A stretch of 52,022 bases of DNA from a bacterium (GTDB taxonomy: Bacteria > UBA6262 > WVXT01): positions 1 to 52,022 of the forward strand of contig JBHIBS010000010.1 in assembly GCA_046759165.1 (NCBI GenBank), written 5' to 3'. Below are positions 25,006 through 41,155 of the stretch, piece after piece; within the stretch, counting starts at the first letter, position 1, and each line of letters starts with the position of its first letter. The position numbers and the translations under genes were made by a program. A model generated the notes under the pieces. That model saw only the letters and a list, made by a program, of their open reading frames with translations. It was not told where the DNA came from and did not search any database.

Positions 25006-25644
25006 TCAATCAGTCTCCTCTTTCTCCCATCCACAGGCTTCTCCTTCGGTTTCCTTCTTAAGGAATAATTCCTCATAAAGGACAATCACCTTCTTTACTG
25101 CAAAACAGGTGGCATCTGACGATATAGTCGCTCCACTGATGGCACGAATATCCTTACGCACTTTTATACTATCCTCACTGCTTTTACCAACGAACTGCTT
25201 CAGGAAATTACGCCGGGCAATAGGGCGTCCCCTTTTTTCCTTATATGACATCACTGCTAAGTTCTTAACTTTTGCTGTAGCAGTATCCAGAGCAATGATG
25301 AATTTCACTGGACCCCATTTGCCGGGTTGTTCTTCAATCACTGCCACTCCAGTTTTCTGATTATCTTTTAGACCAAAATAAAATGTATATTTGACCTTTT
25401 CTTCCACTTCTTCTGACTTTGAACCTTTTTGATAATGAACCAAACTTCCACCCAACCTCTCCTTAATTCTTGCTGTTTCTGTAGAAGTCAGTACTCGGGT
25501 CTCAGTCACTATTTCCTCCGCTTCAGGGAACATTTTTTCTAACGCTTGTTCCTGAGTGAGCAATTGTACTGCAAGGCAATTTTTAGAAAACACAACAATA
25601 CTAAGAACTAATAATACTCCTATTGCAACCTTTCTAATAATCAT
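25006..25644 (-). CDS. Exported FMN-binding protein (flavinylation target)
   Basis: Signal peptide, AISGATISS flavinylation motif, adjacent to apbE. Confidence 0.85.
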   Translation of the reverse strand: MIIRKVAIGVLLVLSIVVFSKNCLAVQLLTQEQALEKMFPEAEEIVTETRVLTSTETARIKERLGGSLVHYQKGSKSEEVEEKVKYTFYFGLKDNQKTGVAVIEEQPGKWGPVKFIIALDTATAKVKNLAVMSYKEKRGRPIARRNFLKQFVGKSSEDSIKVRKDIRAISGATISSDATCFAVKKVIVLYEELFLKKETEGEACGWEKEETD

Positions 25645-26660
25645 TTCTTGCCCCCTTTGCTAATAATCTCAAGGTTTTCTTTCAACCCTGAAGAATATAA
25701 AATCTCTCCCTCGGTGGTAACCATTAATGTTTCCGTATCTGGTGTTTTTTCTACAAGTTCCAGTCCTTTCTCTTTTCCCATCACGAAAAGTGCTGTTGAC
25801 CAGGCATCAGCAAACACAGGGTCAGGAGAGATTACAGTAACACTGGTTAATCCTCTTGCCGGATAGCCAGTTTTTGGGTTAAGTATGTGATGGTATTTTA
25901 CGCCGTCTTTTTCAAAAAATCTCTCATAGTCACCAGAAGTAACCACAGCCAAATCCGATACTTCAATAACACCAATAACTCCTTCGCCCCGGGGATTCCG
26001 AATACCCACTTTCCAATCTTTCCCTTTTAACTTCCCCAAAGCATAAATATCACCTCCGGCATCAACTAATGCTGATTTTATTCCTTCTTCTTTTAGGACC
26101 TTTATTGCTTCACTTACAGCGTATCCTTTGGCGATTCCTCCTAAATCAATTTTAATATCTTCTTTGAGTTTTGTAAGTTTACCATTTTTAATAAATAGTT
26201 TTTTATATCCAATCTTCTTTAAATACTCGCTGATTTTCTGCTTCCCCGGTAGAGCAGGAGAATCACCATAGAATCCCCAAAGTGTTATTAGAGGATAAAT
26301 TGTAATATCAAAGGCACCAATGCTTTCCTTACTAACCTGTTGTGCTATTTTCAATAAATCAAGTATTTCCTGATCGGTGGTAGGTATATTTTTATTATTG
26401 AATTCGTAGAGCGGACTATTTGGATCTAGCACATTGAATTTTTTGTCAATTTCCTCCATTCTATCAAGAGCCAAACTGATAGCCCTGTTAACCACTTTCT
26501 TCGGTCCCACAGCTTGTATAGTGCAGTAGGTGTCCATAAGAAAGCGGGTTTGTTTCTGTATCTTTTCTTCAGTTACTATAAATGACCGCCCTGCAAGAAA
26601 AAATATCACTGCCAAAATTATAACTAACCCACCAATGGAGAGCAATTTCTTTTTTTGCAT
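25641..26660 (-). CDS. apbE: FAD:protein FMN transferase (ApbE/FmnB)
   Basis: N-terminal anchor, LMDT, AFDITI, DLGGIAKGYA, AGGDI, TSGDYER, HHILNPKTG, ADAWSTA. Confidence 0.95.
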   Translation of the reverse strand: MQKKKLLSIGGLVIILAVIFFLAGRSFIVTEEKIQKQTRFLMDTYCTIQAVGPKKVVNRAISLALDRMEEIDKKFNVLDPNSPLYEFNNKNIPTTDQEILDLLKIAQQVSKESIGAFDITIYPLITLWGFYGDSPALPGKQKISEYLKKIGYKKLFIKNGKLTKLKEDIKIDLGGIAKGYAVSEAIKVLKEEGIKSALVDAGGDIYALGKLKGKDWKVGIRNPRGEGVIGVIEVSDLAVVTSGDYERFFEKDGVKYHHILNPKTGYPARGLTSVTVISPDPVFADAWSTALFVMGKEKGLELVEKTPDTETLMVTTEGEILYSSGLKENLEIISKGGKK

Positions 26661-26886
26661 TTATAAAATCCTCCCTTGAAGGCGAAAGGGGCCTTCGTTT
26701 CCGTAGTGAGATTTGTCTCACTTTTTTACAGAGACCTCTCCTTCTCAATTACTGTCCGCCAATGTGGCTGCCAAAGCGGAGAAGTGAAGGCTATCACACC
26801 AGACAGAAGTCTCCCTGGGCGCTAAACGCTAAATTTTTGTCCCTGGCGCCTCACGAATAGCTTCAGTGTAGTGATTCTGTCTATAA

Positions 26887-27978
26887 TTAGAAAGTAGTTC
26901 TCCAGCCCACGGTTAGCCGGTTGAAGTCTAACTTGTTACTCCCATCCTTTCTTTTCCAGTCGGCAATATCGTACTGAATCAGAATAATGGAACTACTGGA
27001 AGCATAGAGCTGTAAACCTGGGGTGACGGTTATATACTTCTCGCCTCCAGGTGCAGTGTAAAAGAAACCATTGAAGTTATGGTCAGCCACATTGTAGTGC
27101 AACATTGCTCTACCCCAAGGGGCAAAACGGTAAAATACCTTAGCATAGAAGCCAAAAGGTTTGGCATCTCCTGTACCAGCAATACTATTCTTCCATATAC
27201 CACCAGCATATTCACTTCTAATGGAAAGTTCTTTCCATGTATAGGCTGCACCTACTGCCCAGCGAGTCATATTATATTTGTTGTTATCATCCCATTTCCC
27301 TGTAGCAAGTGAAGCCAGGAACTTAACCGCACCGACTTCAGGTTCGGCGTGGAGCATTACCACGGGCCCCTTATTGTTATCAGAAAACTCGTATCCTCCA
27401 TTCAGGAGATACAGGTACGCTGGGAGGGAGACCTCGCCTAATTCAAAGGACTTATAGACTTCAATCCCGGTATCGTGCATTGCTCCCAGATAGTTGTTGC
27501 AGGCAAATTTACTGCCATTGTATTCGTCTTCCCAGAAGAGTTCTGCACCGTAGTCCCAGGTGAAGCGGGGCTTCACAATCCCAGCAGCTATCTCATACCC
27601 TTGCGGTAAAACTGCCTTAACGACAGCCTTTACCCAGCCGTGGAATTCTCCTTCCACATCCTTGGCTGCTGTTTTCTGTTCTCCAATCTCTTTCCCAAAT
27701 TTAGGTGTTGCTCCACTACTGGCAGACCACATAGGCTGAAGGTCAACAGAGATCTTTTCCGTCAGTTCCTGAGAGACATAGAGAATCATTTCTCTGAAAC
27801 CTATTCCAGTGTAATCGTTACCAGAGACACCATCGCTTTTACCAACACTGCCGTCAAAAAGAGTAAGTTTAATATGGCTACCTACTCTTGTTTCTCCTGC
27901 CTGTAACAGGGAAACTGACCCAAAAATCAAACAGCCAATTACTAAAAGCATTAGACATTTCTTTGTCATTTTTGTCAT
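26887..27978 (-). CDS. Probable outer-membrane beta-barrel (porin-like) protein
   Basis: Signal peptide ending LQA, alternating aromatic beta-strand pattern, C-terminal LTVGWRTTF; start 27978 or 27969. Confidence 0.7.
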   Translation of the reverse strand: MTKMTKKCLMLLVIGCLIFGSVSLLQAGETRVGSHIKLTLFDGSVGKSDGVSGNDYTGIGFREMILYVSQELTEKISVDLQPMWSASSGATPKFGKEIGEQKTAAKDVEGEFHGWVKAVVKAVLPQGYEIAAGIVKPRFTWDYGAELFWEDEYNGSKFACNNYLGAMHDTGIEVYKSFELGEVSLPAYLYLLNGGYEFSDNNKGPVVMLHAEPEVGAVKFLASLATGKWDDNNKYNMTRWAVGAAYTWKELSIRSEYAGGIWKNSIAGTGDAKPFGFYAKVFYRFAPWGRAMLHYNVADHNFNGFFYTAPGGEKYITVTPGLQLYASSSSIILIQYDIADWKRKDGSNKLDFNRLTVGWRTTF

Positions 27979-28113
27979 TTCACCCCTTTTTATTTGATTT
28001 ATTGCCCCTTCTATCGGGACATAATTTGTCTTTATCGTCGCCAAATGTAAAGAAAGACCAACTTAAAAAGTTCCCACCTCCTTTCTAGCGATAAGTTGAA
28101 CCAATAATTTTTA

Positions 28114-28134
28114 ACGCAGACCAAGGTCTGCTAC
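28114..28134. repeat. Single GTAG-type REP-like palindrome
   Basis: acgcagaccaaggtctgctac, identical to 30820-30840; its CTA is the stop codon of the 28131 gene. Confidence 0.7.
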
Positions 28135-28589
28135 CTCGTTGCTTTTCTTAACCATATGTCGTACAGGTTAAGAACAAAGAGCGATAAAAAAGTTAAAGCC
28201 AAAAAAGTGCCAGCAAGCCACAAAACATAGGCGAATCCTCTCCATAAATAAGGTATTAGGTACATTGAACCAATATCAGCCACAATTACAAGAAAAGGGA
28301 AGATTGCAAAAAATCTTTTCAGTTTTTCAGGATACGAGGTGAACATAAACATAATAATCGGTAAAGCAAAAAGATAAACCGAATAGTAAGGCAGATATTT
28401 GTGTGCATGATCAGTCAGTTCAATGTATTCCATTCCTCCATAAGCCTCAGCGACCAGAGATGGTTTCATCTGGGTATCTATCCAGATATGTACGAGTAGA
28501 GTAATGTAGATTAGCCCTATTGTGCAAAGTAATGCTGTTACCAGTAACTTAGCACTAGTCGGTGCATTTGAAAGCCTAAAATTATCCAT
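28131..28589 (-). CDS. Uncharacterised 4-TM membrane protein with His residues (possible heme/quinone-linked redox protein)
   Basis: GGAGG RBS, four hydrophobic segments, VHIW and DHAHKY; function inferred only from context. Confidence 0.6.
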   Translation of the reverse strand: MDNFRLSNAPTSAKLLVTALLCTIGLIYITLLVHIWIDTQMKPSLVAEAYGGMEYIELTDHAHKYLPYYSVYLFALPIIMFMFTSYPEKLKRFFAIFPFLVIVADIGSMYLIPYLWRGFAYVLWLAGTFLALTFLSLFVLNLYDIWLRKATR

Positions 28590-28630
28590 AGCTTTTTCCC
28601 TCCTCTTTTAATTGTGAATTTCGGATTACA

Positions 28631-28727
28631 GATTCGACCCTCCGGGCTATTGCTAGTCCCGATGAATCGTGGCTTCGGTTGTGGAGTTTATCCCACACAT
28701 TTAATGTGCGGGGCTCCCTGGCAATGA
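28631..28727. repeat. Intergenic palindromic mosaic (REP-like)
   Basis: cccgatgaatcg (as in 34382/36316 elements), cccacacatttaatgtgcggg hairpin, gcaatga tail. Confidence 0.4.
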
Positions 28728-28749
28728 TATTTCAATTCCCAATTTGTAA

Positions 28750-28932
28750 TCATTTGTCCCTATCTTTCATTATTTTTCCAGCAATTAATAATGTGGGAAT
28801 CCAGAGCCCAATAAAGATTCCAAACCTTTCAGCATATGCCGGGTCTATTCTCTTATAATAAAACCAGATAACATAAACCAAAAGCAGTGAAATACCTGCA
28901 CCAATGTACAACCAAGTTGAAATTTTCTTCAT
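28750..28932 (-). CDS. Small two-TM hypothetical membrane protein
   Basis: ATG 28932 with AGGGGG RBS; two hydrophobic helices, AERFGIFIGLWIPT. Confidence 0.6.
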   Translation of the reverse strand: MKKISTWLYIGAGISLLLVYVIWFYYKRIDPAYAERFGIFIGLWIPTLLIAGKIMKDRDK

Positions 28933-28986
28933 AATAACCCCCCTTTGCTCTATATCGTTCATAGTTTTACACTCCTGCCGCAACCA

Positions 28987-30183
28987 TTATATCTCCTCTG
29001 TGCTTTCGTCCGTTTGCTGATATAGTTTAACAATCAAACCACTTAAAGCAGGAATCAGTTTTTTCATGGATTTCCCATTAAGTTTCTGGTTTTGTATAAA
29101 AGAACGAGTCCTTTCCCAAAAAACAGGAATAGATAACCAGGATGATGTTACTATTGCTCCTATTCTATCTCCCGATATACCGAATAATTTCAAAGGTGAC
29201 AGAATTCTTTTTAAACCTGCTGCCAGGTCATCAGGAGAAGTGGTTCTAATCAGCAAAGAAGCGCTCAACATCAAAAGGACAAGTCGAAAAACAAACATGC
29301 TTCCCATAGATAGTCCTCCCTGAGTAATTTTCAAGAAGCCCAAATTTGATAAAATTTCTCCGTTTCTATTAAAGAAAACAGGTATGGCGAAAGAAAAAAA
29401 CAAGAATGAAGATAACTTTCTAATCCCGGAAAACAAATGAGAAAAAGAAATTTTTGCCAAATAAGCGACGCAAAACAAGAAAAATAACACTACAGTATAA
29501 CTTAAAAAGTTGTCCAAGAATAAAACTATCAATGCCAAAATAAATACAGATATTATTTTTAGGGCGGGGGATAACAAATGGATGCGTGAATTCAGATGAA
29601 TATAGTGTTGGGGCATAAAAGAAGAAACACCGGTAGTTTTGTTTTCTTTTAGAGACACTCCGATACAGGAATTTTCTAATTTCTGGCATACCTGCGAAGC
29701 AACTAATCCGGTAATCCAACCCATTATAACAGCACTGATTCCCAGCCAGGGCAAAAGTAAAAAAATTCCTTGATGTCTGATTAGCAAGAGATAAACCAAA
29801 CTAATTTGAACTAAGTTATGCGTAATTGCGCCAAGTAGACTTATGCCAATAAGGCTGAAATATAGTTTATGGTTTAAAGTCGATAGTTTATAGAAAAGGC
29901 CCATAATTAAAGTACTTATCAAAGCGCCTGTGAAACTCAAAATGAAAGAAGGAGAAAGAAAAGTCCCTAAAATGAAGGAACTGATTATAGTGCGTAAGAC
30001 CGCTATCTCCACCGCAGCCCTAAAACCGAGAGTAACCAGAGCTACTAAAGTAATCATATTAGCCAAACCCAAGCGAACACCGGGAACAGGATGAGGGATA
30101 AGACTCTCGGCAATCTGTAAAACAGCAGCACAAGAAACCAAAAGTGCTATTTTTTTAATTTGTTTATCTTTTTCTACTTCCAT
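28987..30183 (-). CDS. Gx transporter (heptaprenyl diphosphate synthase component I-like) fused to ECF transporter T (CbiQ/EcfT-like) domain
   Basis: ESLIPHPVPGVRLGLANMITL, GAITHNLVQ in N-half; SRIHLLSPALK and LLIRTTSPDDLAAGLKRILSPL in C-half. Confidence 0.8.
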   Translation of the reverse strand: MEVEKDKQIKKIALLVSCAAVLQIAESLIPHPVPGVRLGLANMITLVALVTLGFRAAVEIAVLRTIISSFILGTFLSPSFILSFTGALISTLIMGLFYKLSTLNHKLYFSLIGISLLGAITHNLVQISLVYLLLIRHQGIFLLLPWLGISAVIMGWITGLVASQVCQKLENSCIGVSLKENKTTGVSSFMPQHYIHLNSRIHLLSPALKIISVFILALIVLFLDNFLSYTVVLFFLFCVAYLAKISFSHLFSGIRKLSSFLFFSFAIPVFFNRNGEILSNLGFLKITQGGLSMGSMFVFRLVLLMLSASLLIRTTSPDDLAAGLKRILSPLKLFGISGDRIGAIVTSSWLSIPVFWERTRSFIQNQKLNGKSMKKLIPALSGLIVKLYQQTDESTEEI

Positions 30184-30203
30184 ACCATAGACCTCGTCTT
30201 TTC

Positions 30204-30581
30204 TCAGTAACTTATAGCATTATATTCCGCATTGGATATTCCAACAATTTCTATCAATACTTTATTCGGCACACAAATGATTGTTTGACCAGGTTTTGAT
30301 ATCCAGCCTGTCTGCACACATATTTTCTGAGGACAATCAGATTTTAATACTCTTATACGTCCTTCTTTGACTTCTATTTCCATATCAGCATAATTTATGA
30401 TTTTCTCTTCTGATAAGTTAACCTCTTTTATTAACTTTCCATTCTCATAGATAAAAGCCTTCTCGCCACCATTAGACCTGAAGTTCTTGAACGAGAGAAG
30501 AGAACTAACAGAAAATATTAATATTATTCCAGCAAGAATAAAATCATATTTAGATACTTGATAGAGATTTCGTCTGTTCAT
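30204..30581 (-). CDS. NusG domain II (DUF1312)-like extracytoplasmic protein
   Basis: N-terminal TM, SDCPQKICVQTGWI...IICVPNKV. Confidence 0.88.
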   Translation of the reverse strand: MNRRNLYQVSKYDFILAGIILIFSVSSLLSFKNFRSNGGEKAFIYENGKLIKEVNLSEEKIINYADMEIEVKEGRIRVLKSDCPQKICVQTGWISKPGQTIICVPNKVLIEIVGISNAEYNAISY

Positions 30582-31449
30582 GTTTTCTGCTCACTACATA
30601 TTCAGATAAATTTTTTAAACTTTCTTTGTGCTTTGAGTTTGAGTTATTGAAAAATGCAATGTTTTCTTTAGCTCGCAGGGCATATTCTTTCGCCTTTTCC
30701 AGCATATCTATCTTGAAAGTAAATGGAGAGTCGCCATCCAGATAGTCATCCATTATCTGATAAGAAATTCCAAAATTATGACCAAATTTTTGGAGTAGCG
30801 AAACTTGTTTCGCGTTTTGACGCAGACCAAGGTCTGCTACTCCTTGAAGTACTAATATTGACCCAGCCTGGCAACAGACAGACATAAAACCTGCAGTTTT
30901 GTTCTCAATTATCTTCAAATATTCTTCAAAAGAAGAGATAGGTCTTCTTAATTCATCGATTTCACCACGGCACATTTTTTCTACACATTGGGATAGAATC
31001 CTCACTATTTTCTTATCAAGTTTATTGGTCAGAAGTGAAAAAGCGCGAGCATATAACATATCGCCTGCCAAGACAGCAATTTGATTACCAAATTGTTTAT
31101 TTAAGCTTGGCTGTTCTCTCCGCTGTAGCGCGTTATCTACTATGTCGTCGTGTATCAAAGTTGCGTTATGAATGAGTTCAACTGCAGTAGCCAAATGAAT
31201 CAGGTTCTCGGTTATCCGTTTTTGGGGCTCGTTAACGGTTTTAGCAGATAGTAAAACTAATGCCGGCCGGAGGCGTTTGCCCGGAACATTGAAGAAATAA
31301 CTGATAATTTCGCTCACCCCCGCCCATCGTTGATGGACAGGGTTCACAAATTTTTGATTTTCGCTAACTGAATTTACCTGTTCTTTTAATTCTGTCTCAA
31401 CCTGAGATAACTCTTTGGATATTGGTTGATAGATTTCTTTAAGTTCCAT
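30550..31449 (-). CDS. Polyprenyl diphosphate synthase (HepT/IspB/DmkB-like)
   Basis: GKRLRP, ELIHNATLIHDDIVD..RR, AVLAGD, KTA, YQIMDDYLD; alternative start 31461. Confidence 0.9.
   Translation of the reverse strand: MELKEIYQPISKELSQVETELKEQVNSVSENQKFVNPVHQRWAGVSEIISYFFNVPGKRLRPALVLLSAKTVNEPQKRITENLIHLATAVELIHNATLIHDDIVDNALQRREQPSLNKQFGNQIAVLAGDMLYARAFSLLTNKLDKKIVRILSQCVEKMCRGEIDELRRPISSFEEYLKIIENKTAGFMSVCCQAGSILVLQGVADLGLRQNAKQVSLLQKFGHNFGISYQIMDDYLDGDSPFTFKIDMLEKAKEYALRAKENIAFFNNSNSKHKESLKNLSEYVVSRKHEQTKSLSSI
30792..30843. repeat. 52-bp REP doublet embedded in frame in the polyprenyl synthase
   Basis: ggagtagc/gctactcc terminal arms around hairpins gcgaaacttgtttcgc and gcagaccaaggtctgc; same layout and length as 34352-34403. 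Confidence 0.75.
31314..31347. mobile_element. 30-nt in-frame hairpin insertion with 4-bp direct repeat
   Basis: Minus strand GTGA-accctgtccatc-aac-gatgggcgggg-GTGA; encodes NPVHQRWAGV. Confidence 0.55.
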
Positions 31450-31450
31450 T

Positions 31451-31906
31451 TTATTCTTCATTTGGTTCTTTCCGTTTTTCTGGCCAATTTACCCACTTGC
31501 TTATTTTCATTTTCAAGAGCTTTTCTACTTTTTGAACCAAATCTTCCGGCTGGGCTGGTTTATCGATAAAATCATCAACAGGAAGATACTCACCATCGGT
31601 TTTAGGCGAAAAGCCAAAATCAGGATTTTGAACATTGACTGCCGTGACCATCAATATCGGTATAGGTGCAAGCATCTTATCTTGTTTCATTTTGACAGCA
31701 TAATCAAAGCCTTTTGTCTGTTTTTTACTGCCAAACATTACATCAAGAATAATTAAATCAGGCTTTTCTTCTTTTGCCTTTCGGAAACCCTCATCAGGAC
31801 TAAAAGCAGAATCCACCTGATAATTCTTTGCTTCTAATGTAATTTTCATTGCTTCAACCATATCAATATCGTCCTCAATAATAAGAATTTTTGGCTTATC
31901 AGTCAT
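31451..31906 (-). CDS. Single-domain response regulator (receiver only)
   Basis: ILIIEDD, PDLIILDVM, ILMVTA, FIDKP; no output domain. Confidence 0.9.
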   Translation of the reverse strand: MTDKPKILIIEDDIDMVEAMKITLEAKNYQVDSAFSPDEGFRKAKEEKPDLIILDVMFGSKKQTKGFDYAVKMKQDKMLAPIPILMVTAVNVQNPDFGFSPKTDGEYLPVDDFIDKPAQPEDLVQKVEKLLKMKISKWVNWPEKRKEPNEE

Positions 31907-33252: not shown

Positions 33253-33253
33253 C

Positions 33254-34174
33254 TTATTTAACCAATAGGTCGAGTAGATAGCTACCACTCAACAATAGTC
33301 CAATTGTTAAATGCAAACCAATAGTTGCTGCATTAGCTGGAAGTAATTCATAAATCTTATCGTAGCTTGACTTAGCCACCCTAATCGCCTTAATGCATAA
33401 AGGAAGAGTAATGAAAATTATTAAAGCAAAGTAAGGAAAATTTTTTGTAATGACTCCTAAAATAACCCACAAATAAATGAATCCTAAGAGTAGATAATAA
33501 ACTTTAATCGCTTTTTTCTTTCCTAAGATTACTACCAATGTCCTTTTGCCTGCTTGTTTATCTGCTTCGTAATCAGGGAATTCGTTGATATAGAGAACCA
33601 GAGCAATGAGAATACCTATCGGGATTGAGGCAAAAAATGGTAACCAAGATAATTGATGGGCCTGGACATAATATGAACCTAAAACCATAACTGGACCAAA
33701 CCCTAAACCTACAGATAGTTCACCAAATCCTGTATATCCAATTCGAATAGGAGCAGCATTATAAAAGAATGCTAAAAATATTCCAATGATGCCTATAATT
33801 AAAAGAACATTTCCAGGCAAAACAAAATTCAGGTATAGACCAATAGTAATGCCTACCAAGAAACAGAAAATACTACCCCGAAGTACCTGGTGAGGCGCAA
33901 GAAGCCTTTCTTGTATTACCCTACTTCCACCACTAAAAGGCGTAGAGAAACGATTTATTTCATCAACCCCTGATTTATGGTCAAAATAGTCATTTGCTAA
34001 ATCTAATCCTGCGTGGATGAAAAGTCCCCCAATTAAGGCAAACAGGAAAAACAACCAATTAAACTTACCGAACTGATGCCAGGCTATCACTGCGCCCAGT
34101 GTTATGGGAACCAAAGTGGCAGTAAAAAATTGTGGTCTGATTGCCTTTAACCAAATCATCATCTTGCTCATCAT
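33254..34174 (-). CDS. menA: 1,4-dihydroxy-2-naphthoate prenyltransferase (MenA/DmkA, UbiA family)
   Basis: WLKAIRP, LANDYFDHKSGVD, FSGGSR, INEFPDYEADKQAGKRTL. Confidence 0.88.
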   Translation of the reverse strand: MMSKMMIWLKAIRPQFFTATLVPITLGAVIAWHQFGKFNWLFFLFALIGGLFIHAGLDLANDYFDHKSGVDEINRFSTPFSGGSRVIQERLLAPHQVLRGSIFCFLVGITIGLYLNFVLPGNVLLIIGIIGIFLAFFYNAAPIRIGYTGFGELSVGLGFGPVMVLGSYYVQAHQLSWLPFFASIPIGILIALVLYINEFPDYEADKQAGKRTLVVILGKKKAIKVYYLLLGFIYLWVILGVITKNFPYFALIIFITLPLCIKAIRVAKSSYDKIYELLPANAATIGLHLTIGLLLSGSYLLDLLVK

Positions 34175-34187
34175 CTATTACCTCTTC

Positions 34188-34346
34188 CTGTCATTGCAAG
34201 ATCCATACCCCCTTCTCTGCTCCTCCCCACACCCAGTTTGCTGGGTGTGGGGAAGGAAATCAGGGGGGAAATAAATTAGGTCGTAGTAATCGACCCACAG
34301 AGTTCCCGATTGAAAATCGGGATGAGACTGAAGGTCGTGGCAATCC
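34188..34346. repeat. Composite palindromic intergenic element, partly homologous to 11652-11724
   Basis: ctgtcattgc start, ctctgctcctcccc, nested hairpins cacacccag-tttg-ctgggtgtg and cccgatt-gaa-aatcggg, gtggcaatc end. Confidence 0.6.
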
Positions 34347-34351
34347 AGTAT

Positions 34352-34403
34352 GGAGTAGCACCGCTCGCGGTGCGTTGACGCTCCGATGAATCGGAGCTAC
34401 TCC
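34352..34403. repeat. 52-bp REP doublet (GTAG type)
   Basis: ggagtagc-accgctcgcggtgc-gttgac-gctccgatgaatcggagc-tactcc; extra tggagtagca at 34411-34420. Confidence 0.75.
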
Positions 34404-34465
34404 GGACTAATGGAGTAGCAAATTGCCAGACAAGCAAACATACTCTGGATGTATGTCATATGTCA

Positions 34466-35299
34466 TTAGAGTTTTTCTGTAAATTCCTTAATCTGGGCGT
34501 AAGTAAAAACAGGCCCATCTTTACAGACATAAAGATGACTAATCATACAATGTCCACATTTGCCGATACCACATTGCATCTGTCTTTCTAATGTAGTGAT
34601 AATTTGTTCTGGCGAGAACTTCATTTTTTCTAAAGATAACAAAGTAAACTTAATCATAATCGGTGGCCCACAAGTAACTACTATGGAATCCTTCGGTGAA
34701 GGATTCACTTCTTCTAAAATCTTTGGCACAAGACCAATCTTTTCTTTCCAGTCTGATGTTTCACCGCCTGGATCAACTGTAAGTACGGTTTTTACTCTGG
34801 GCATCTGTTCCCATTTTTTTAATTCTTCCTTATAGACCAAATCACCAACTGTACGTGCACCATAAATTATGGTTATATCACGAAAGTCTTTCCGATTATC
34901 TAAACAATACCAGATTAGAGACCTCAGTGGAGCAACCCCTATGCCTCCTGCAACAAAAATCAAATTCTTACCCCACATATCTTCAACCGGGAATCCATTC
35001 CCGTAGGGACCGCGTATTCCTACAATATCTCCTTCTTCTAATTCGTGAACTGCCTGAGTGACCTTGCCTAGTCTCTTAATACTGCATTCAATATATCCTT
35101 GCCTGGTCGGTGAAGAAGATAAACAAAACGGGGCTTCACCAATTCCATATACTGAAAGCTCAATAAACTGTCCCGGACGATAAGAGAAATCTTTACAGAG
35201 TTTTTTATTTAGGAATACTATTTTAAGAGTTCTAATATCCTCTGTTTCTTCGGTTATCTTTTCAATTTTAGCTGAATTAGGAATGTATGGATTCTGCAT
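34466..35299 (-). CDS. flxA: FlxA: FAD/NAD-binding [2Fe-2S] oxidoreductase subunit (AsrB/HydG-like)
   Basis: PGQF, GEAPF, RGPYGNGF, AGGIGVAPL, CGPPIM, MQCGIGKCGHC...VCKDGPVF; last gene of hdrCBA-flxDCBA order. Confidence 0.85.
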   Translation of the reverse strand: MQNPYIPNSAKIEKITEETEDIRTLKIVFLNKKLCKDFSYRPGQFIELSVYGIGEAPFCLSSSPTRQGYIECSIKRLGKVTQAVHELEEGDIVGIRGPYGNGFPVEDMWGKNLIFVAGGIGVAPLRSLIWYCLDNRKDFRDITIIYGARTVGDLVYKEELKKWEQMPRVKTVLTVDPGGETSDWKEKIGLVPKILEEVNPSPKDSIVVTCGPPIMIKFTLLSLEKMKFSPEQIITTLERQMQCGIGKCGHCMISHLYVCKDGPVFTYAQIKEFTEKL

Positions 35300-36266
35300 C
35301 TTTTAATACCTCAGTAAAATCTATCTTTACTGGACAGTTCCTTATACAACGACCACAGCCTACACAAAGATATTCACCATAATTTTTTTTGTGATAACTA
35401 AATTTATGATAATACCACTGTTTATATCTGGCAACTTTCTTCTCCCGAGGATTTGTTCCTGCTGCTTCTTTGGTAAACGAGGGAAAACTACAAGCAGCCC
35501 AGAATCTTATTCGTTTTCTTTCTTCATCTACTAAACTAAAACAGTGGCAGGTAGCACAGAGATAACGACAAATTCCACAGCTGATGCATTTCCGAGAGAT
35601 TTTATCCCAAAAGTCATTTTCAAATATTGCTTCTAAGTTTTCAGGAACTCTTAAATCCTTAACTATTTTCTTTTGAACTTCCTGAATCAATTCCTGCTTT
35701 TCTTTTCTATGAGATTCTTTTACATCTTTACCATAATCTTTTAGAAGATTTTTTCCCTTCTCAGTAATTATTTGAGCAAAGTAAGTCTCGTTTTTTAATT
35801 TTGTAAACAGAACATCCAGGCCCTGTGTTGAAAAAGGACCCTTCTCATCCAAGGAGTAACAAAAACAGGTATTATCGGGATTTTCACAGGTTAATCCCAC
35901 CAGAATAGTTTTTTCTCTTTTTTCTAAATAATAGGTATCTTTATAGTCTCCATCAAAGATTTTATCTAAAAGAGCTAAACTCCGTGCATCGCAGGGACGT
36001 ATGCCCCAAATGACAGTAGTTCGTAGCTCGTGGGGTGTGGCTTGTGGTTCATTATTAGAATAAGTGAATAAAATTTCTCGTGGTGAGAAAAAGAGTTCTT
36101 TTGCTGGTTTTAACGAATTCGTATAATCCCAGAAAATTTCTTCTCTTTTTTTTATTGCCTTGAATAAGACAAGCTCCTCTTCTTTAATAGGAGCGATGAT
36201 TTCATAATTATTCATCAAATCAGAAATTAGTCTATTTATCTCTGTTTTTGTAATAATCTTTTCCAT
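35277..36266 (-). CDS. flxB: FlxB: 4Fe-4S dicluster subunit (AsrA-like)
   Basis: GIRPCD, TCFC, CISCGICRYLCATCHCF, CVGCGRCIRNCP. Confidence 0.82.
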   Translation of the reverse strand: MEKIITKTEINRLISDLMNNYEIIAPIKEEELVLFKAIKKREEIFWDYTNSLKPAKELFFSPREILFTYSNNEPQATPHELRTTVIWGIRPCDARSLALLDKIFDGDYKDTYYLEKREKTILVGLTCENPDNTCFCYSLDEKGPFSTQGLDVLFTKLKNETYFAQIITEKGKNLLKDYGKDVKESHRKEKQELIQEVQKKIVKDLRVPENLEAIFENDFWDKISRKCISCGICRYLCATCHCFSLVDEERKRIRFWAACSFPSFTKEAAGTNPREKKVARYKQWYYHKFSYHKKNYGEYLCVGCGRCIRNCPVKIDFTEVLKDAESIHS

Positions 36267-36283
36267 AAGGCATACATTAAGGA

Positions 36284-36337
36284 TAGCCGCACCTTCTACA
36301 GGTGCGGATTAACGCTCCGATGAATCGGAGCGACTAC
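36284..36337. repeat. REP doublet overlapping the flxC stop codon
   Basis: ccgcacc/ggtgcgg and cgctccgatgaatcggagcg hairpins; 20-mer 36312-36331 identical to 34378-34397. Confidence 0.7.
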
Positions 36338-37206
36338 CGAATAAAATCCTGAGAATCTTCCTCCTTAAAGTCATCAAGAGGAGGTTTTGCTTCCCAACTT
36401 TCTCCTGGAGAATAATCAAATAGTTCTTTTATTTCCTTAGACATTTTCTTGTTCAGTTTTGATAAAGGAATATTCACAGGACAAACTCGTTCGCACTCAC
36501 CACAATCAATACATCGACCGGCTAAATGGTAGGCTCTGACAATATTCCAGGCAACATTCCCTTTTAGAGATGGAGAAGAAAGAATCCATTGAGGAATATT
36601 CTGGTCAGTAATACATTCTTGACAATAACATAAAGGACAAACTTGACGGCAGGCATAACAGCGAATACATTTCTCAAACTGTTTCTTCCAGAAGTCCCAT
36701 TTTTCTTTAACTTTCTTTATTTCAAATTCGGCAATATCCGCATAAGGGTCTTTTCCCTGATTCTCGGTGCTTGGCGCTATATTCGGGTTCTTAATAAGAA
36801 TATCGTAAACCTTAGGGATATGTGCTTGGCAATATTGACATTTATCCAATACCTTCTCATCGATTACTTGTTTTTCGCACTCTACACCGATAATCACAAT
36901 GTTTTCTCGTTTTATTTGATTTTCCTGAATAAGACCAACGATCGATTTGACATCGCAACCTTTGGTAACAATCCCAATCCGTTTTCGATTCTCGATTTTC
37001 AGTTTTAATAACTCGGGCAAATAGACAGAAAGATTATAGACACAATATTCGTTCCAAATAAGTTTTTCAATTTCATTCTCATCGTCAACAAAACATGGAG
37101 TGGCGGAAAAACCATCTTTTCCTTTTCCATACCCAATAATTAAATCAACTTTTCTGTGTTGAAATAATTTTTTTGCTTCCTGTTGAAGTTGTTTTAACTG
37201 TTCCAT
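36334..37206 (-). CDS. flxC: FlxC: 4Fe-4S dicluster subunit
   Basis: KGCD, CIRCYACRQVCPLCYCQEC, HLAGRCIDCGECERVCP. Confidence 0.82.
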   Translation of the reverse strand: MEQLKQLQQEAKKLFQHRKVDLIIGYGKGKDGFSATPCFVDDENEIEKLIWNEYCVYNLSVYLPELLKLKIENRKRIGIVTKGCDVKSIVGLIQENQIKRENIVIIGVECEKQVIDEKVLDKCQYCQAHIPKVYDILIKNPNIAPSTENQGKDPYADIAEFEIKKVKEKWDFWKKQFEKCIRCYACRQVCPLCYCQECITDQNIPQWILSSPSLKGNVAWNIVRAYHLAGRCIDCGECERVCPVNIPLSKLNKKMSKEIKELFDYSPGESWEAKPPLDDFKEEDSQDFIR

Positions 37207-37219
37207 ATTAACTATTCAC

Positions 37220-37669
37220 CTAATCACTTATCCACTGCTTGTTTGGCCCAGCATCCTTTACTTCTTCGGTAATTTTTGAGGCAACTTCTGCCCATTTTTT
37301 ATCTTCAGCAGCGGAAACCCAACTTACTTGAAATCGGCGAGGGTCGATACCGACAAACTCCAAAAGTTTCTTGAATATAGCAAACCTGCGGCGAGCATAA
37401 TAGTTTCCTTCAGTATAATGACAATCACCAGGATGGCAACCCGAAAGTAAGACACCATCCGCACCTCTTTCTAATGCTTTAAGAACAAATAAAGGATTCA
37501 TTCTTCCGGAACAGGTTACCCGAATGATTCGAAGATTAGCTGGATATTTTAGTCTACTCCCTCCGGCTAAGTCTGCTCCAGCATAAGAGCACCAATTACA
37601 TAAAAAACCAATAATTTTAGGCTGCCACTCTTCTGGTTTATTGTTTATGGCTGATGGTTTATTGTTCAT
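37220..37669 (-). CDS. flxD: FlxD/MvhD [2Fe-2S] subunit
   Basis: FLCNWCSYAGAD, VTCSGR, GADGV, GCHPGDCHY, WVSAAE. Confidence 0.92.
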   Translation of the reverse strand: MNNKPSAINNKPEEWQPKIIGFLCNWCSYAGADLAGGSRLKYPANLRIIRVTCSGRMNPLFVLKALERGADGVLLSGCHPGDCHYTEGNYYARRRFAIFKKLLEFVGIDPRRFQVSWVSAAEDKKWAEVASKITEEVKDAGPNKQWISD

Positions 37670-37687
37670 TTTTCTATTAACTATCGG

Positions 37688-39637
37688 CTAAATTGTAGCT
37701 ACCTCAGCAAATATTTGTTCATCAGTAAAACTTGCAAGGTCAATTGCTCCTACCCGGCAGGCAGAGACACAATTTCCACAACCATGACAGACGCTTTCAA
37801 TTACTTTAGCAACTGTTCTTTTATCTCTGGTAATTTCTTCTTCAATAGCACTAAAAGGACAGACTACTTTACAATCAAAACAACCGTTACAAATACGTTG
37901 ATTAACTTGCGCAACAACTGGTTCAACAGTCAAATAATCGTGAGTAAATAATCCCAATGCTTTAACTGAACCAGCAGAAGCAGTAGCCACGGTATCAGGA
38001 ATATCCTTTGGTGATTGACAGGCACCAGTTAAGAATACACCTGTGGTTACTGTTTCCACTGGAGCAAGTTTCGTATGTAATTCAGTGAATAGTCTATTCT
38101 TATCATAAGGGATACCCAGCATTTGTGCTACCTTGACCGCATCTGGTCGGGCAATCAAACCAGTAGCTAAAACAACCAAATCAGCGTCTATTTCAATCTG
38201 CGTCCCGGAAAGCGAATCTGCTCCACGGACAATTAACTTGTCACCGCGAGGGAAAATTTTTGATACACGACCACGCAGGTAAAGAACTCTATATTCATCC
38301 TGTACTCTTTCGATAAATTCTTCATAATTTTTCCCTGCTGCTCGAATATCAATATAGAAAACATAAGCTTGCGCATTAGGATTGTGTTCCTTTAATAGTA
38401 AAGCGTGTTTGGCAGTATACATACAACAAAGTCTTGAACAATAGGGCACCCCTTTGGATTCATCTCGCGAACCAACACATTGAATGAAAACCACATTCTT
38501 TGCTTCTTTTCCATCTGAAGGGCGAATGATTCTACCACCAGTTGGGCCTGAAGAATTAACCATTCTCTCATATTGTAATCCCGTGATTATATTCTTATAT
38601 TTCCCTCCACCATATTCGCCATACACCGACCAGTCGAAGAGGGTAAAACCAGTAGCTACAATAATTGCACCGAATTTCTCTTCGATGGTTTCGTCTTGTT
38701 GCTCATAATCTATTGCTTCTGCGGGACACATTTTTTGACAAACTTTACATTTACCAGTAGTAAAATAACGACAGTTTTTTCGGTCAATAACCGGAATATT
38801 TGGGACTGCTTGGGGAAAAGGCACATAAATCGCTTTGCGCATACCCAAGCCCTGATCAAACTCTGAGGGCACTTTAATCGGACATTTCTGCCAGCAAATC
38901 CCACAACCAGTACATTTGGACATATCCACAGAACGAGCACGCTTACGGATTTTTACTGTAAAGTTTCCTACATAACCGGAGACTTCTTCTACTTCTGAAT
39001 ATGTATAAATTTGAATATTTTCATCTTGGGCTACTGTAACCATTTTAGGTGTCAGGATACAAGCCGCACAATCCAATGTAGGAAAAGTTTTATCAAACTG
39101 CGCCATTCTGCCACCAATACTGGGTTCTCTTTCCACAATTACTGCTTTATACCCAGCAATCCCGATATCAATAGCAGCTTGAATTCCTGATATTCCACCA
39201 CCGATTATTAACGCTTTCTTTTCTACAGAAACCTTCATTTTAAATAAAGGCTTGTTTTTGTTTACTTTAGCTATAGCTAATTTCACCAAATCGCAACCCT
39301 TTTCGGTTGCTTCTTCTTTATCTTCATGTACCCATGAACATTGTTCCCGGATATTGGCCATTTCCACTAAATAGGGATTTAAACCATTATTTTCTAAACA
39401 TCGTTGGAAAGTACGTTCATGTAATCGAGGGGAACAGGCAGCTACAACGACTCGATCAAGTCTTTCTTTTTTAATGGTTTCACTAATTAATAGTTGCCCA
39501 GGGTCAGAGCACATATATTTGTAATCACAGGCTTTTACTACATGTGGCAATTTAGCCATTTCTCTGGTTACTTTTTCTACATCCACAGTAGCAGCAATAT
39601 TGGTTCCACAATGACAAACAAATACACCTACCCTCAT
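37688..39637 (-). CDS. hdrA: Heterodisulfide reductase subunit A-like flavoprotein
   Basis: VGVFVCHCG (true start ATG 39637), AACSPRLHE, NIREQCSWVH, GGGISG, KTFPTLDC, QCVGSRD, CSRLCCMY, ferredoxin motifs. Confidence 0.95.
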   Translation of the reverse strand: MRVGVFVCHCGTNIAATVDVEKVTREMAKLPHVVKACDYKYMCSDPGQLLISETIKKERLDRVVVAACSPRLHERTFQRCLENNGLNPYLVEMANIREQCSWVHEDKEEATEKGCDLVKLAIAKVNKNKPLFKMKVSVEKKALIIGGGISGIQAAIDIGIAGYKAVIVEREPSIGGRMAQFDKTFPTLDCAACILTPKMVTVAQDENIQIYTYSEVEEVSGYVGNFTVKIRKRARSVDMSKCTGCGICWQKCPIKVPSEFDQGLGMRKAIYVPFPQAVPNIPVIDRKNCRYFTTGKCKVCQKMCPAEAIDYEQQDETIEEKFGAIIVATGFTLFDWSVYGEYGGGKYKNIITGLQYERMVNSSGPTGGRIIRPSDGKEAKNVVFIQCVGSRDESKGVPYCSRLCCMYTAKHALLLKEHNPNAQAYVFYIDIRAAGKNYEEFIERVQDEYRVLYLRGRVSKIFPRGDKLIVRGADSLSGTQIEIDADLVVLATGLIARPDAVKVAQMLGIPYDKNRLFTELHTKLAPVETVTTGVFLTGACQSPKDIPDTVATASAGSVKALGLFTHDYLTVEPVVAQVNQRICNGCFDCKVVCPFSAIEEEITRDKRTVAKVIESVCHGCGNCVSACRVGAIDLASFTDEQIFAEVATI

Positions 39638-39638
39638 A

Positions 39639-40508
39639 CTAACTCTCTCTCTCTTTAAATAGATTTTGTGGGCTGACAATATGTTTCTGCAAACCCAATT
39701 TTTTCGCTTCAATTCCCAAGGCTAAACCTACCAATTGAGTGAAGTAAAGAATGGGAAGATTAAATTTAGTGTTGTATTTCCTTTCCGTCTCTCTTTGTCT
39801 TAAGTCAAGATTTGATTGACAAAGTGGACAGGCGACAACAAGACAGTCTGCCTCTGCTTCCTTAGCCATTTGTAATATGTCTTTACACAATTTCAACACT
39901 ATGTCGGTCTTAGTCAAAGAAAAACTCGCTCCACAACATTCTACTTTATAAGGCCACTCCACTGATTCCGCGCCCAAAGCGCCCATTAGTCGGTCCATCA
40001 TCTGAGGATTTTCGGCATCATCAAATTCCATTATTTTAGATGGACGTACAAGCAGACAGCCATAATAACAGGCTACTTTTATTCCTGTAAGTTTATGGGT
40101 AACTTTTTGAGAAATCTTTTCTAAACCGTATTCTTTGACTAAGATCTCTAAAAAATGTTTTGTTTCCACCTCACCTTCATACCGGTCTTTGAGGAGTTCA
40201 TTTATTTTCTCCCGTTTCTCTTCATCTGTTCGGATAATATGATTAGCAATTTTTAACCGATTGAAACAAGCAGCGCAACAGACTGCCAATTCACTGGCTC
40301 CGGTAGATCGTGTAATAAGTAAATTCTTTGTTGGTAAAACCAGAGAAAGATAGTGAAGTGTTACATGTGCCGGAGTAGCACCGCAACAAATCCAATCGGG
40401 AATCTCGCACAATTCTATACCTAACTGTTCAGCTACGGCTCTGGTGGAAATGTCATATTCCTTGGATGTAGAATGAAGGGCGCAACCGGGGAAATAGGCA
40501 TATTTCAT
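39639..40508 (-). CDS. hdrB: Heterodisulfide reductase subunit B-like (CCG domains)
   Basis: YFPGC, WICCGA, CAACF, YYGCL, ECCGA, ACPLCQ. Confidence 0.93.
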   Translation of the reverse strand: MKYAYFPGCALHSTSKEYDISTRAVAEQLGIELCEIPDWICCGATPAHVTLHYLSLVLPTKNLLITRSTGASELAVCCAACFNRLKIANHIIRTDEEKREKINELLKDRYEGEVETKHFLEILVKEYGLEKISQKVTHKLTGIKVACYYGCLLVRPSKIMEFDDAENPQMMDRLMGALGAESVEWPYKVECCGASFSLTKTDIVLKLCKDILQMAKEAEADCLVVACPLCQSNLDLRQRETERKYNTKFNLPILYFTQLVGLALGIEAKKLGLQKHIVSPQNLFKERES

Positions 40509-41155
40509 TTTTCTACGATTCCTTTTACCAGAGGCAATTTGTTTATAAGACCTTTAATCATAAACCTGAATGTTAATAATTCTTTTCTGCGAACCTTTTC
40601 CATTTTTCCTGAATTTTTAAATATGGACTTTAGTTCTTTTAATCCTTTGACCCGGGCAGGAAAAATATTTATTTTTCCTTTCGAGAACATTTTTGGCGCA
40701 TGAACAAAATCTTTAAAGAAGTTTCCACTTAAAGTATTGAACATTCCGATTAATCCGAATTCATATAGCCTTCCAAAAAGTTCAATGTTTCTTAAAAATA
40801 TTCGATTGAATAAGGGAATATATGTATGCAGTTTTGGAAAAATATTTCTGCGATAGGCAATCCTTCTTAACACGTCCATAACTTCGGCAATCTCTATCTC
40901 TCGCGGACAACGAACACTGCAGGTAATGCAGGAGGCACAAAGCCATATTGTGTTACTGGAAAGGACAGTATCCTTCATTCCTAATTGAATCATTCTGATG
41001 ATTTGATTAGGAGTATAGTCCATTTCGTAGGCGATTGGACAACCGGCTGAGCATTTACCGCATTGGTAACAATGAAAAATTCTTGTCTTACTTTCCGCTT
41101 CTATCTCACGGACAAATTTTGCTTTTAGAGTATCTGAGTGGATAAACCATTTCAT
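40505..41155 (-). CDS. hdrC: Heterodisulfide reductase subunit C-like
   Basis: CYQCGKCSAGCP and WLCASCITCSVRCP. Confidence 0.93.
   Translation of the reverse strand: MKWFIHSDTLKAKFVREIEAESKTRIFHCYQCGKCSAGCPIAYEMDYTPNQIIRMIQLGMKDTVLSSNTIWLCASCITCSVRCPREIEIAEVMDVLRRIAYRRNIFPKLHTYIPLFNRIFLRNIELFGRLYEFGLIGMFNTLSGNFFKDFVHAPKMFSKGKINIFPARVKGLKELKSIFKNSGKMEKVRRKELLTFRFMIKGLINKLPLVKGIVEK

Follow-up and report, generated by a model that had tools for sequence, protein, structure and literature searches.

Flavin-based extracellular electron transfer (FLEET) is established in Gram-positive bacteria, and how such a route would cross an outer membrane is an open question. It is raised by a contig of 52,022 nucleotides from a bacterium of the GTDB lineage UBA6262; WVXT01 (JBHIBS010000010.1, assembly GCA_046759165.1; here called the window), in which homologues of the Listeria monocytogenes FLEET genes lie together with a gene for an outer-membrane barrel. 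Does this locus encode an electron transfer system, does the barrel belong to it, and where would the electrons come from? We propose that positions 25006–34174 probably encode a FLEET-related, quinone-coupled, ApbE-based envelope flavinylation system, with a conserved porin-containing core, which would pass electrons to a flavin in the periplasm or on the cell surface. An earlier note on this DNA, made without database searches, had read the region as a FLEET-like locus in which an Hdr-Flx complex may replace the NADH dehydrogenase Ndh2 and to which a porin was added.

The window genes were assigned to families with Pfam and NCBIfam profiles. Each gene named in the earlier note was recovered by these profiles in its place on the minus strand. 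The module comprises, in the direction of transcription:

33254–34174, minus strand: MenA/DmkA-like DHNA prenyltransferase of the UbiA family (Pfam, NCBIfam)
31903–33288, minus strand: RegB/PrrB-like membrane histidine kinase (NCBIfam NF033792)
31451–31906, minus strand: receiver-only response regulator (Pfam)
30550–31461, minus strand: polyprenyl diphosphate synthase, DmkB/HepT-like (Pfam, NCBIfam)
30204–30581, minus strand: EetA, a NusG_II protein with an N-terminal anchor (Pfam)
28987–30183, minus strand: EetB::FmnA fusion of an ECF-S-like domain (PF07456) and an ECF-T domain (CbiQ), predicted core of a FAD exporter (Pfam, NCBIfam)
28750–28932, minus strand: 60-residue open reading frame (two hydrophobic helices) behind a good ribosome-binding site
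28131–28589, minus strand: four-helix inner-membrane protein of the Aq_1264_TM family (ESM Atlas)
26887–27978, minus strand: OprO/P-like porin of 363 residues, 16 strands in the predicted model, with signal peptide and C-terminal Phe
27706–27717, minus strand: SGAT motif of the porin, a candidate ApbE site (Thr91 codon 27706–27708)
25641–26660, minus strand: ApbE/FmnB flavin transferase with an N-terminal membrane anchor (Pfam, NCBIfam)
25006–25644, minus strand: secreted RnfG-like FMN-binding protein (Pfam, NCBIfam)
25126–25137, minus strand: predicted SGAT flavinylation motif of the FMN-binding protein, residues 170–173

Two of these genes, the kinase and the receiver between menA and the polyprenyl synthase, had been passed over in the earlier gene list. 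That list also held a barrel and two unknown membrane proteins; the barrel is a genuine porin, and one of the unknowns turned out to be the Aq_1264_TM family member.

Whether the barrel belongs to the system was addressed with a survey anchored on the porin. Scanning genome_contigs gave 19 loci, with porins 33–59% identical to that of the window, onto which the window proteins were mapped by tblastn; Pfam was run on 103, 79 and 12 open reading frames from these loci. The record titles name at least eight groups (Latescibacterota, Cloacimonadota, Armatimonadota, Goldiibacteriota, Spirochaetia, FCPU426, Fibrobacteres, and Planctomycetota). Near the porin we found:

RnfG-like FMN_bind gene downstream of the porin, no more than about 2.1 kb away: 17 of 17 loci that could be evaluated (in L004 and L011 the sequence stops before this point)
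apbE: 15 of 18 loci (not found in L002, L013, and L017)
eetA and eetB::fmnA: 12 of 17 loci
Aq_1264_TM: 12 of 18 loci (tblastn found 11, an alignment added L010)
FAD synthetase gene between porin and apbE: 3 of 19 loci
RegB-like kinase: 4 of 19 loci
polyprenyl synthase: 4 of 19 loci
menA: 1 of 19 loci
Rrf2 gene flanking the module: 5 of 19 loci
Nqr/Rnf-type operon, adjacent and co-oriented: 3 of 19 loci (L003, L006, L012)
hdrABC: 2 of 19 loci (L012, L016), on the opposite strand, convergent and without flx
flxB, flxC, and flxD: 0 of 19 loci

The conserved unit is eetA – eetB::fmnA – (Aq_1264_TM) – porin – apbE – FMN_bind, and many diderm lineages without cultured members have it. The porin belongs to the core of the module and is not an addition to FLEET, as had been supposed; FMN_bind follows it in all evaluable loci, and no other partner of the FMN-binding protein is as constant as the porin. 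Some loci are reduced. The two from Fibrobacteres (L013, L017) retain only porin and FMN_bind, preceded by a weakly matching DUF2271-like gene, without eetAB or apbE nearby, and eetAB is also missing nearby in three Latescibacterota loci. The Aq_1264_TM slot is occupied by a CopD-like protein in L007 and L011 (weak match) and by a DUF4405-like protein in L017 (E=5.4e-5, below cut-off). A closer porin relative, P0001, is 90% identical and lies on a contig of 3.8 kb.

The surveyed loci hold further neighbours. The DUF2271-like gene precedes porin – FMN_bind in both Fibrobacteres loci (L013, 111–848; L017, 8744–9445), with matches of E=1.9e-4 and 8e-6, respectively, both under the Pfam cut-off. 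Genes for multihaem cytochromes c (Cytochrome_C7 and MtrC/MtrF-like domain matches) and hemA are found in L004 (5730–6707) and L014 (1800–2825), a few genes upstream of Aq_1264_TM – porin – apbE; both belong to the three Latescibacterota loci that have no eetAB nearby. A small secreted CarboxypepD_reg-like protein is encoded immediately 5' of Aq_1264_TM in L002, L004, and L014.

What kind of barrel is it? The porin gene starts with the ATG at 27978, behind the ribosome-binding site GGGGTG; its closest homologue has the same start, and the product of 363 residues ends in Phe. Taken singly, the window porin drew no match from the local Pfam copy. We found 108 homologues at E<=0.001 and aligned 66 of them with the window porin (alignment A1, 67 sequences). 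Porin_O_P matched 22 of the 67 family members and Porin_4 matched 13, none matched DUF3570 (PF12094) at E<=0.01, and the family profile gave a weak match to OprO/OprP. A porin model in the ESM Atlas resembles Porin_O_P clusters (TM 0.80). The AlphaFold2 model built from A1 (pLDDT 92.8, pTM 0.84) matched 251 PDB chains at E<=0.001 in Foldseek, with PorB (5.7e-12), Omp32, OprP (1.4e-10), OprO, and OmpF/C at the top. It has 16 strands if residues 52–58 and 61–72 are counted as one kinked strand. Its periplasmic turns comprise 2–5 residues and its outer loops are longer, with an L3 of 33 residues that carries two short helices. As modelled, the barrel is a classical 16-strand porin of the OprO/P, PorB, and OmpF kind.

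The most conserved stretch of the family in A1 is x-[S/T]-G-A-T-P-x-[F/L]-G. At one alignment column, 48 of the 67 porins have [S/T]GA[S/T] and 64 have [G/S]A[S/T], while the full D-x-x-[S/T]-G-A-[S/T] is present in 11. Position 0 of the site is Thr in 64 sequences and Ser in three, preceded by Ala in 66 of 67 and followed by Pro in all. Just three four-column windows of A1 are conserved to at least 68% in each column (TGAT, GATP, and ELFW), and by a crude estimate the chance that windows so conserved fit the ApbE motif is ~2e-4. When sequences were shuffled, 619 of 13,400 contained the motif. Among the porins of the survey loci, 11 of 19 have the strict motif at the site; L005 has TGAS, and the others read AGATP, TSATP or TSASP (the motif of L006 was read from its cluster, P0060). 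The window porin carries SGAT with Thr91, placed by the AlphaFold2 model directly after strand 3, at the start of the extracellular loop L2.

The pattern D-x-x-[S/T]-G-A-[S/T], modified at its last residue, is the seven-residue ApbE tag, which functions in foreign proteins; within it the Asp is nearly dispensable (D to A has a minor effect) and changes of Gly or Ala roughly halve modification (PMC12052999). Flavinylation at such motifs has been reported, by co-expression and mutation, for DUF2271 proteins and for DUF3570 proteins of ~420 residues (Meheust et al., PMC8238504). On the strength of the motif, Thr91 is a possible second ApbE target, a prediction to which we give somewhat short of an even chance. 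Covalent flavinylation there would tether a flavin to the outer face of the outer membrane, an outcome that we put forward tentatively. Since Thr91 is on the extracellular side and ApbE is periplasmic, modification would need the unfolded precursor, before the barrel assembles. In the literature that we searched, which took in few supplements and none of bioRxiv, no porin is described as flavinylated or as linked to flavinylation.

The case for the FMN-binding protein is firmer. It has 552 homologues, and its profile aligns over nearly the full length with RnfG of solved Rnf complexes (9eri_G, E=2.2e-7; 7zc6_G). Its motif reads I-R-A-I-S-G-A-T173, without Asp at position −6, and G171, A172, and T173 are invariant in 43 sequences. 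The N-terminus, read by eye, is a short signal peptide ending in C-L-A without a lipobox. An ApbE is encoded next to it (Pfam, E=1.9e-90). We strongly infer from the motif that Thr173 is flavinylated. In L006 and L012, the adjacent Rnf/Nqr operon has its own FMN_bind subunit (RnfG/NqrC), therefore the RnfG-like protein of the module is an orphan extra copy.

A flavinylated RnfG-like protein could also do its work beside an ordinary porin. It would then reduce a substrate (ferric chelate, flavin or quinone shuttle, for instance) whose way in or out is an unmodified, anion-selective OprO/P-like porin, with GATP serving structure alone. The relationship to the phosphate-selective OprO/OprP is in line with this, as FMN and FAD are phosphate-bearing anions. 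So are the frequent ties of published flavinylation clusters to iron uptake (PMC8238504), the lack of the strict motif in 19 of the 67 porins, and the Rrf2 regulators that flank the module in five of the 19 loci and in the window:

24456–24899, minus strand: Rrf2-family regulator with its own 12-of-12 sigma-70-like promoter at 24972–24944 (Pfam)

However, no gene for an iron transporter or any other transporter is conserved in the module, as judged by Pfam in the survey, and the match of the porin's most conserved stretch to an ApbE site would have to be a coincidence. We consider this explanation rather unlikely.

How close is the module to FLEET? EetA (PF07009, E=4.8e-30) and EetB (PF07456, E=1.4e-39) are encoded side by side, and the CbiQ domain occupies residues 199–384 of the EetB::FmnA fusion. 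The equation of EetA with NusG_II and of EetB with the Gx family PF07456, made in the earlier note, is right, because Rivera-Lugo et al. 2023 used PF07456 in their search for EetB and have the same labels for both in their Data Set S1 (PMC9973259). According to that paper, EetB is an ECF-S-like FAD-binding protein that, together with FmnA (ECF-T) and the EcfA/A' ATPases, exports FAD for ApbE, and natural EetB–ECF-T fusions had already been noted (PMC9973259). At the family level, seven of the eight FLEET functions are indeed present. The eighth is lacking as had been noted, with no Ndh2 gene found in the window by Pfam scans. Meheust et al. 2021 define an extracellular electron transfer (EET) cluster as one in which the flavinylation genes include a type II NADH dehydrogenase (K03885) that has a transmembrane helix (PMC8238504). 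The window has no such enzyme, its only Pyr_redox_2 proteins being HdrA and an SQR-like protein; because Ndh2 is absent, the module is FLEET-related but not FLEET by the published definition. RnfB and NqrF, either of which would mark an Rnf/Nqr-associated flavinylation cluster, were not found in the window by Pfam either. The SQR-like protein was considered as a stand-in for Ndh2 and rejected; its best family is type III SQR (E=2e-80), and a strong terminator follows its gene.

Set beside the Listeria locus (dmkA, dmkB, eetA, eetB, fmnA, fmnB, pplA, ndh2), the window shares the MenA-like protein, the polyprenyl synthase, EetA, EetB, FmnA, and ApbE, as well as a secreted protein in which an FMN_bind domain carries an SGAT site. 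It differs in that Ndh2 is absent and EetB and FmnA are fused. The bacterium is, moreover, a diderm, and its locus includes a dedicated porin, an Aq_1264_TM protein, and a RegB-like kinase. Furthermore, PplA is a two-domain surface lipoprotein, whereas the flavoprotein of the window has a single RnfG-like domain and an ordinary signal peptide without lipobox.

The link to quinones became stronger than the earlier note had drawn it. DmkA-type (MenA) and DmkB-type (polyprenyl synthase) families are both present in the window (NCBIfam), and the MenA-like protein scores 142.7 bits against TIGR00751 (cut-off 102). The kinase inside the operon matches the RegB/PrrB model NF033792 over residues 24–441 (E=2.8e-34, below cut-off) and carries GGAENPF at residues 120–126. 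GGXXNPF is the quinone-binding loop of RegB (PMC3000548), and it is also present in the kinase homologues of L003, L018, and L019, three of the four loci with a RegB-like kinase. Because of this kinase, the module is tied to the quinone pool more firmly than by menA alone.

Where, then, would electrons enter? Directly upstream of the module, on the same strand (41155–34466), stands hdrCBA-flxDCBA, just as the earlier note described:

48972–51882, minus strand: PNPOx-like protein, histidine kinase, and sigma-54 response regulator (Pfam)
41229–41263, minus strand: terminator-like hairpin of 15 pairs with a T run, between the SQR-like gene and hdrC
41201–41216, minus strand: sigma-54-like promoter TGGCAAGTTTGTTGCT, 46 nt 5' of hdrC (consensus match only, one mismatch)
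40505–41155, minus strand: hdrC (Pfam, NCBIfam)
39639–40508, minus strand: hdrB with CCG domains (Pfam, NCBIfam)
37688–39712, minus strand: hdrA, start uncertain, the TTG open reading frame overlapping hdrB by 74 nt (Pfam, NCBIfam)
37220–37669, minus strand: flxD, FlpD/MvhD-like (Pfam, NCBIfam)
36334–37206, minus strand: flxC, a 4Fe-4S protein (Pfam)
35277–36266, minus strand: flxB, Fer4_22, AsrA/HydB-like (Pfam, NCBIfam)
34466–35299, minus strand: flxA, FAD/NAD-binding with DHODB Fe-S domain (Pfam, NCBIfam)
34175–34465, minus strand: flxA-menA gap of 291 nt, strongly structured as RNA (folding against shuffles)

The earlier model made 41155–25006 one FLEET-like unit, in which NADH-linked Hdr-Flx and/or the SQR-like enzyme replaces Ndh2 and supplies a naphthoquinone pool of its own, from which the periplasmic flavoprotein would be reduced. 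Adjacency lends it some plausibility, as does the gap between flxA and menA, which lacks a strong terminator and shows only a weak terminator-like hairpin of 7 pairs (34297–34277). In L006, moreover, an NqrF-like gene stands just before menA and the RegB-like kinase, in the position that flxA has in the window, and hdrABC adjoins the module in L012 and L016. The survey speaks against the model. The adjacency of hdr-flx to the module was seen in none of the 19 related loci: flxB, flxC, and flxD were found in none, hdrABC in the two loci just named but on the opposite strand and without flx, and the flxA matches of tblastn in L003 and L006 are NqrF or NqrF-like genes. In three loci, the NADH-linked complex encoded beside the module is of the Nqr/Rnf type. 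As the flavinylation genes, the porin, and the orphan RnfG-like gene are kept while flx is not, Hdr-Flx is not part of the conserved unit. Nor did Pfam and NCBIfam reveal a membrane or quinone-binding subunit among the hdr-flx genes. Hdr-Flx as donor is therefore unsupported, having no membrane or quinone subunit and not travelling with the module. Flx-Hdr is described as a soluble, ferredoxin/DsrC-linked complex, and the strong terminator isolates the SQR-like gene. That all genes are co-oriented is correct and carries no weight, because all long open reading frames scanned with Pfam are on the minus strand and the GC skew is negative in 26 of 26 windows along the stretch. Taken together, we find this model improbable. 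The hdrCBA-flxDCBA genes look like a separate Flx-Hdr unit of a known type, at most co-regulated with the module; the seven subunit types are contiguous, in the order hdrCBA-flxDCBA, as in the FlxABCD-HdrABC of anaerobes, from which they do not differ by sequence.

Shared regulation is a different matter. The best intergenic sigma-54-like site of the region is TGGCAAGTTTGTTGCT at 41216–41201, and in L006, L005, and L003 similar sites stand 38–64 nt 5' of the gene that opens the module; matches to the consensus are common, with 41 in the window against about 18 expected by chance. Since such sites precede both hdrC and the module of these three loci, a common regulon or co-transcription of hdr-flx with the module, including read-through across 34175–34465, is possible. 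This would also agree with the model just discussed. The trio of PNPOx, kinase, and sigma-54 regulator is directly 5' of the module in L005 and L006 (in L003 as kinase and regulator only), and in the window a distance of 17 kb separates the trio, on the upstream side, from eetA. The gap of 291 nt is predicted to fold much more stably than shuffled copies of it (z = −8.07, 0 of 200 shuffles as good). Rfam gave no match in the whole window at the gathering threshold and, at E<=1 over 24800–34500, two chance eukaryotic matches only, so that no riboswitch explains the structured gaps.

Two features of these gaps were noted in passing. A GC-rich hairpin of 12–14 bp stands right before the ribosome-binding site of menA, and a hairpin core, CGATTCATCGG, recognised by eye, is common to the gaps 34175–34465 and 28590–28750.

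If Hdr-Flx is set aside, the module could instead be a cofactor-maturation cassette for an Rnf or Nqr complex encoded elsewhere, with menA and the polyprenyl synthase as menaquinone genes of the ordinary kind and with no electron transfer role of their own for the porin and the RnfG-like protein. In favour of this, Rnf and EET clusters are the most frequent surroundings of eetB (PMC9973259). Three loci (L003, L006, and L012) have an Nqr/Rnf-type operon next to the module, and in one of them, L006, the same sigma-54-like site stands in front of eetA and again in front of the RnfC-like gene. In the window itself, Pfam scans found no Rnf or Nqr genes (RnfA-E and NqrA-F, RnfB and NqrF included). 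Against a maturation cassette speak L006 and L012, which hold a RnfG/NqrC gene besides the orphan one, and the loci in which porin and orphan FMN_bind stay together (17 of 17 evaluable); no Nqr/Rnf genes were found in the available stretch of 16 of the 19. L013 and L017 keep this pair with neither eetAB nor apbE nearby, and a conserved porin motif of the flavinylation type has no place in such a cassette. We accordingly give the maturation cassette little credence.

The L006 locus is worth describing for itself. Its Rnf/Nqr hybrid operon encodes RnfC, D, G, E, and A and an NqrF-like protein, and is followed by menA and the RegB-like kinase. The identical sigma-54-like sites, TGGCATAATTATTGCC, are at 4025–4040, before eetA, and at 9993–10008, before the RnfC-like gene.

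This leaves the Aq_1264_TM protein, the least understood constituent of the core. The protein of 152 residues was assigned to Aq_1264_TM (PF27139) by the ESM Atlas only (feature score 0.93, structure TM 0.90); neither it nor the 60-residue open reading frame has a match in the local Pfam copy, which does not include PF27139. Searching with a profile from 12 members brought up 999 representatives (E<=0.001), 412 of them with E<=1e-10. One of them, P0286 (531 residues), has an Aq_1264_TM domain (8–168) and an entire ApbE domain (210–489), with a fifth hydrophobic segment between the two; it was the one ApbE fusion among the 11 longer matches scanned of 150 listed, and a word-indexed search found no fused relatives of greater length. 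P0286 could be a natural fusion or a gene-calling read-through; in the latter case, too, the two genes would adjoin each other in a distant lineage. In an alignment of 103 sequences, Lys91 is conserved to 93%, His63 to 86%, Trp146 to 83%, and Tyr50 to 80%, and 81% have a second His at position 65, where the window protein has Tyr. From the topology of the fusion, His63 would lie in the periplasmic half of the membrane. AlphaFold2 predicts four long helices (pLDDT 96.4), and Foldseek found no solved structural relative (best E=3). The name Aq_1264 did not occur in our literature search, nor did any description of Aq_1264_TM. Its role can be guessed at as hand-over of FAD to ApbE, anchoring of the flavoprotein, or contact on the quinol side. 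The 60-residue frame (28750–28932), between eetB::fmnA and Aq_1264_TM, has no Pfam match, and the relatives have no room for it.

Assembled from these parts, the proposed system would work as follows. EetB::FmnA, with ECF ATPases encoded elsewhere, would export FAD, and the membrane-anchored periplasmic ApbE would transfer FMN to the Thr of [S/T]GA[S/T], both as published for homologues. ApbE would act on Thr173 of the RnfG-like protein, and may also flavinylate the porin precursor at Thr91. The naphthoquinone would come from MenA and the polyprenyl synthase, and the RegB-like kinase, whose homologues are published quinone sensors, would tune expression to the quinone pool. Aq_1264_TM would be the inner-membrane partner of ApbE and the flavoprotein, and is a candidate for the contact that passes electrons from quinol to the periplasmic flavin. 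From the periplasmic FMN, electrons may go to a substrate or shuttle that uses the porin, or to a flavin bound to the porin at the surface. NADH would most likely enter through a quinone reductase encoded elsewhere, of the Nqr/Rnf type in the relatives.

Several points weigh against this proposal. In the AlphaFold2 model the porin motif is extracellular whereas ApbE is periplasmic, a lone flavin is unable to span a porin, and the pore of a 16-strand barrel, with its L3, is too narrow to hold the flavoprotein. The GATP motif could be purely structural, given that 19 of 67 porins do not have the strict four residues and only 11 have the full form with Asp. The surveyed loci are distant from the window, with porin identities of 59% at most; apbE was not found in three of 18, and Aq_1264_TM is missing or replaced in six of 18. 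The quinone genes seldom accompany the module (menA in one of 19 loci, the polyprenyl synthase in four) and could be housekeeping genes. The role of Aq_1264_TM is a guess because its fold has no solved relative. With these points counted, we still hold a quinone-coupled flavinylation system with a porin at its core to be the probable reading of 25006–34174.

Does it correspond to a system already described? Porin–cytochrome conduits of the MtrCAB type consist of a wide barrel that sheathes a haem cytochrome. As in these, a redox protein gene is kept beside an outer-membrane barrel gene, and an electron step at the outer membrane is conceivable; the cofactor of the window system, however, would be flavin and not haem, and the barrel has a general-porin fold of 16 strands with a constriction loop. 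Compared with Rnf/Nqr and their ApbE/EetB accessory genes, the likeness lies in the RnfG-like fold and in the operons adjacent in 3 of 19 loci, and the difference in the absence of RnfA-E and NqrA-F from the window and in the RnfG-like gene being an extra copy where Rnf/Nqr is present. The flavinylation systems that Meheust et al. described in 2021, and those of the mSystems follow-up of 2024, likewise combine ApbE with an extracytosolic substrate and a membrane partner, and their substrates outside FMN_bind are recognised by a conserved [S/T]GA[S/T]. Yet none of their membrane proteins (NapH-, MsrQ-, PepSY-, DsbD-, and NQR/RNF-like, DUF4405) is encoded in the window, and as for their substrates DUF2271 and DUF3570, the latter matched none of the 67 porins. 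The word porin does not occur in the main texts of three flavinylation papers from the Light lab. A FLEET-like NUO-DMK-EET-FMN gene set has already been proposed in the Gram-negative phylum Ca. Effluviviacota, where homologues of DmkAB, EetAB, and FmnAB are read as flavin-based EET; the passages on this set name no porin, outer-membrane step or gene order (PMC11323493). An Omnitrophota locus with EetB::CbiQ – Porin_O_P – ApbE – FMN_bind appears without comment in Data Set S1 of PMC9973259. The module thus represents a subtype of FLEET-related system for which our literature searches found no discussion.

The rest of the window is rich in sulfur and iron–sulfur metabolism. By Pfam, the long block 11890–24899 serves to reduce sulfate for assimilation and to make cysteine and sirohaem/haem, comprising the Rrf2 regulator, PAPS reductase, ATP sulfurylase, a PHO4-type permease, a JAB protease, sirohaem synthase, hemA::hemC, cobA::hemD, hemB, hemL, a ThiS-fused PLP enzyme, a small sulfite-reductase-like protein, and ThiF. 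Upstream of hdrC, 41388–48839 encodes the SQR-like flavoprotein (below the cut-off of the type III SQR model at its E=2e-80), a protein of 254 residues of no family, a DsrE-like protein, a probable outer-membrane protein of 447 residues, a LolA-like protein, an MMPL/RND transporter, and an ArsR regulator. At the other end, 1–5816 holds an Fe-S cluster and cysteine set of IscS-like and NifU-like proteins, a second Rrf2 regulator, a serine acetyltransferase-like protein, a cysteine synthase-like PLP enzyme, a RseC/MucC-like protein, and an ArsP-type permease fused to an HMA domain.

For the biology of these bacteria, the survey corrects the tempting reading of Hdr-Flx as the electron donor and turns attention to the envelope. 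A porin kept together with flavinylation genes across many uncultured diderm phyla offers a concrete target for the outer-membrane question, and a cheaply testable one, since the best-conserved motif of the porin matches an ApbE site. Should the porin be flavinylated, it would be a new class of ApbE substrate. If, furthermore, the RnfG-like protein, the quinone pool, and a shuttle through the pore act together with it, diderms would have a haem-free route of extracellular electron transfer, and two families without a function, Aq_1264_TM and the clade of the window porin, would be given roles.

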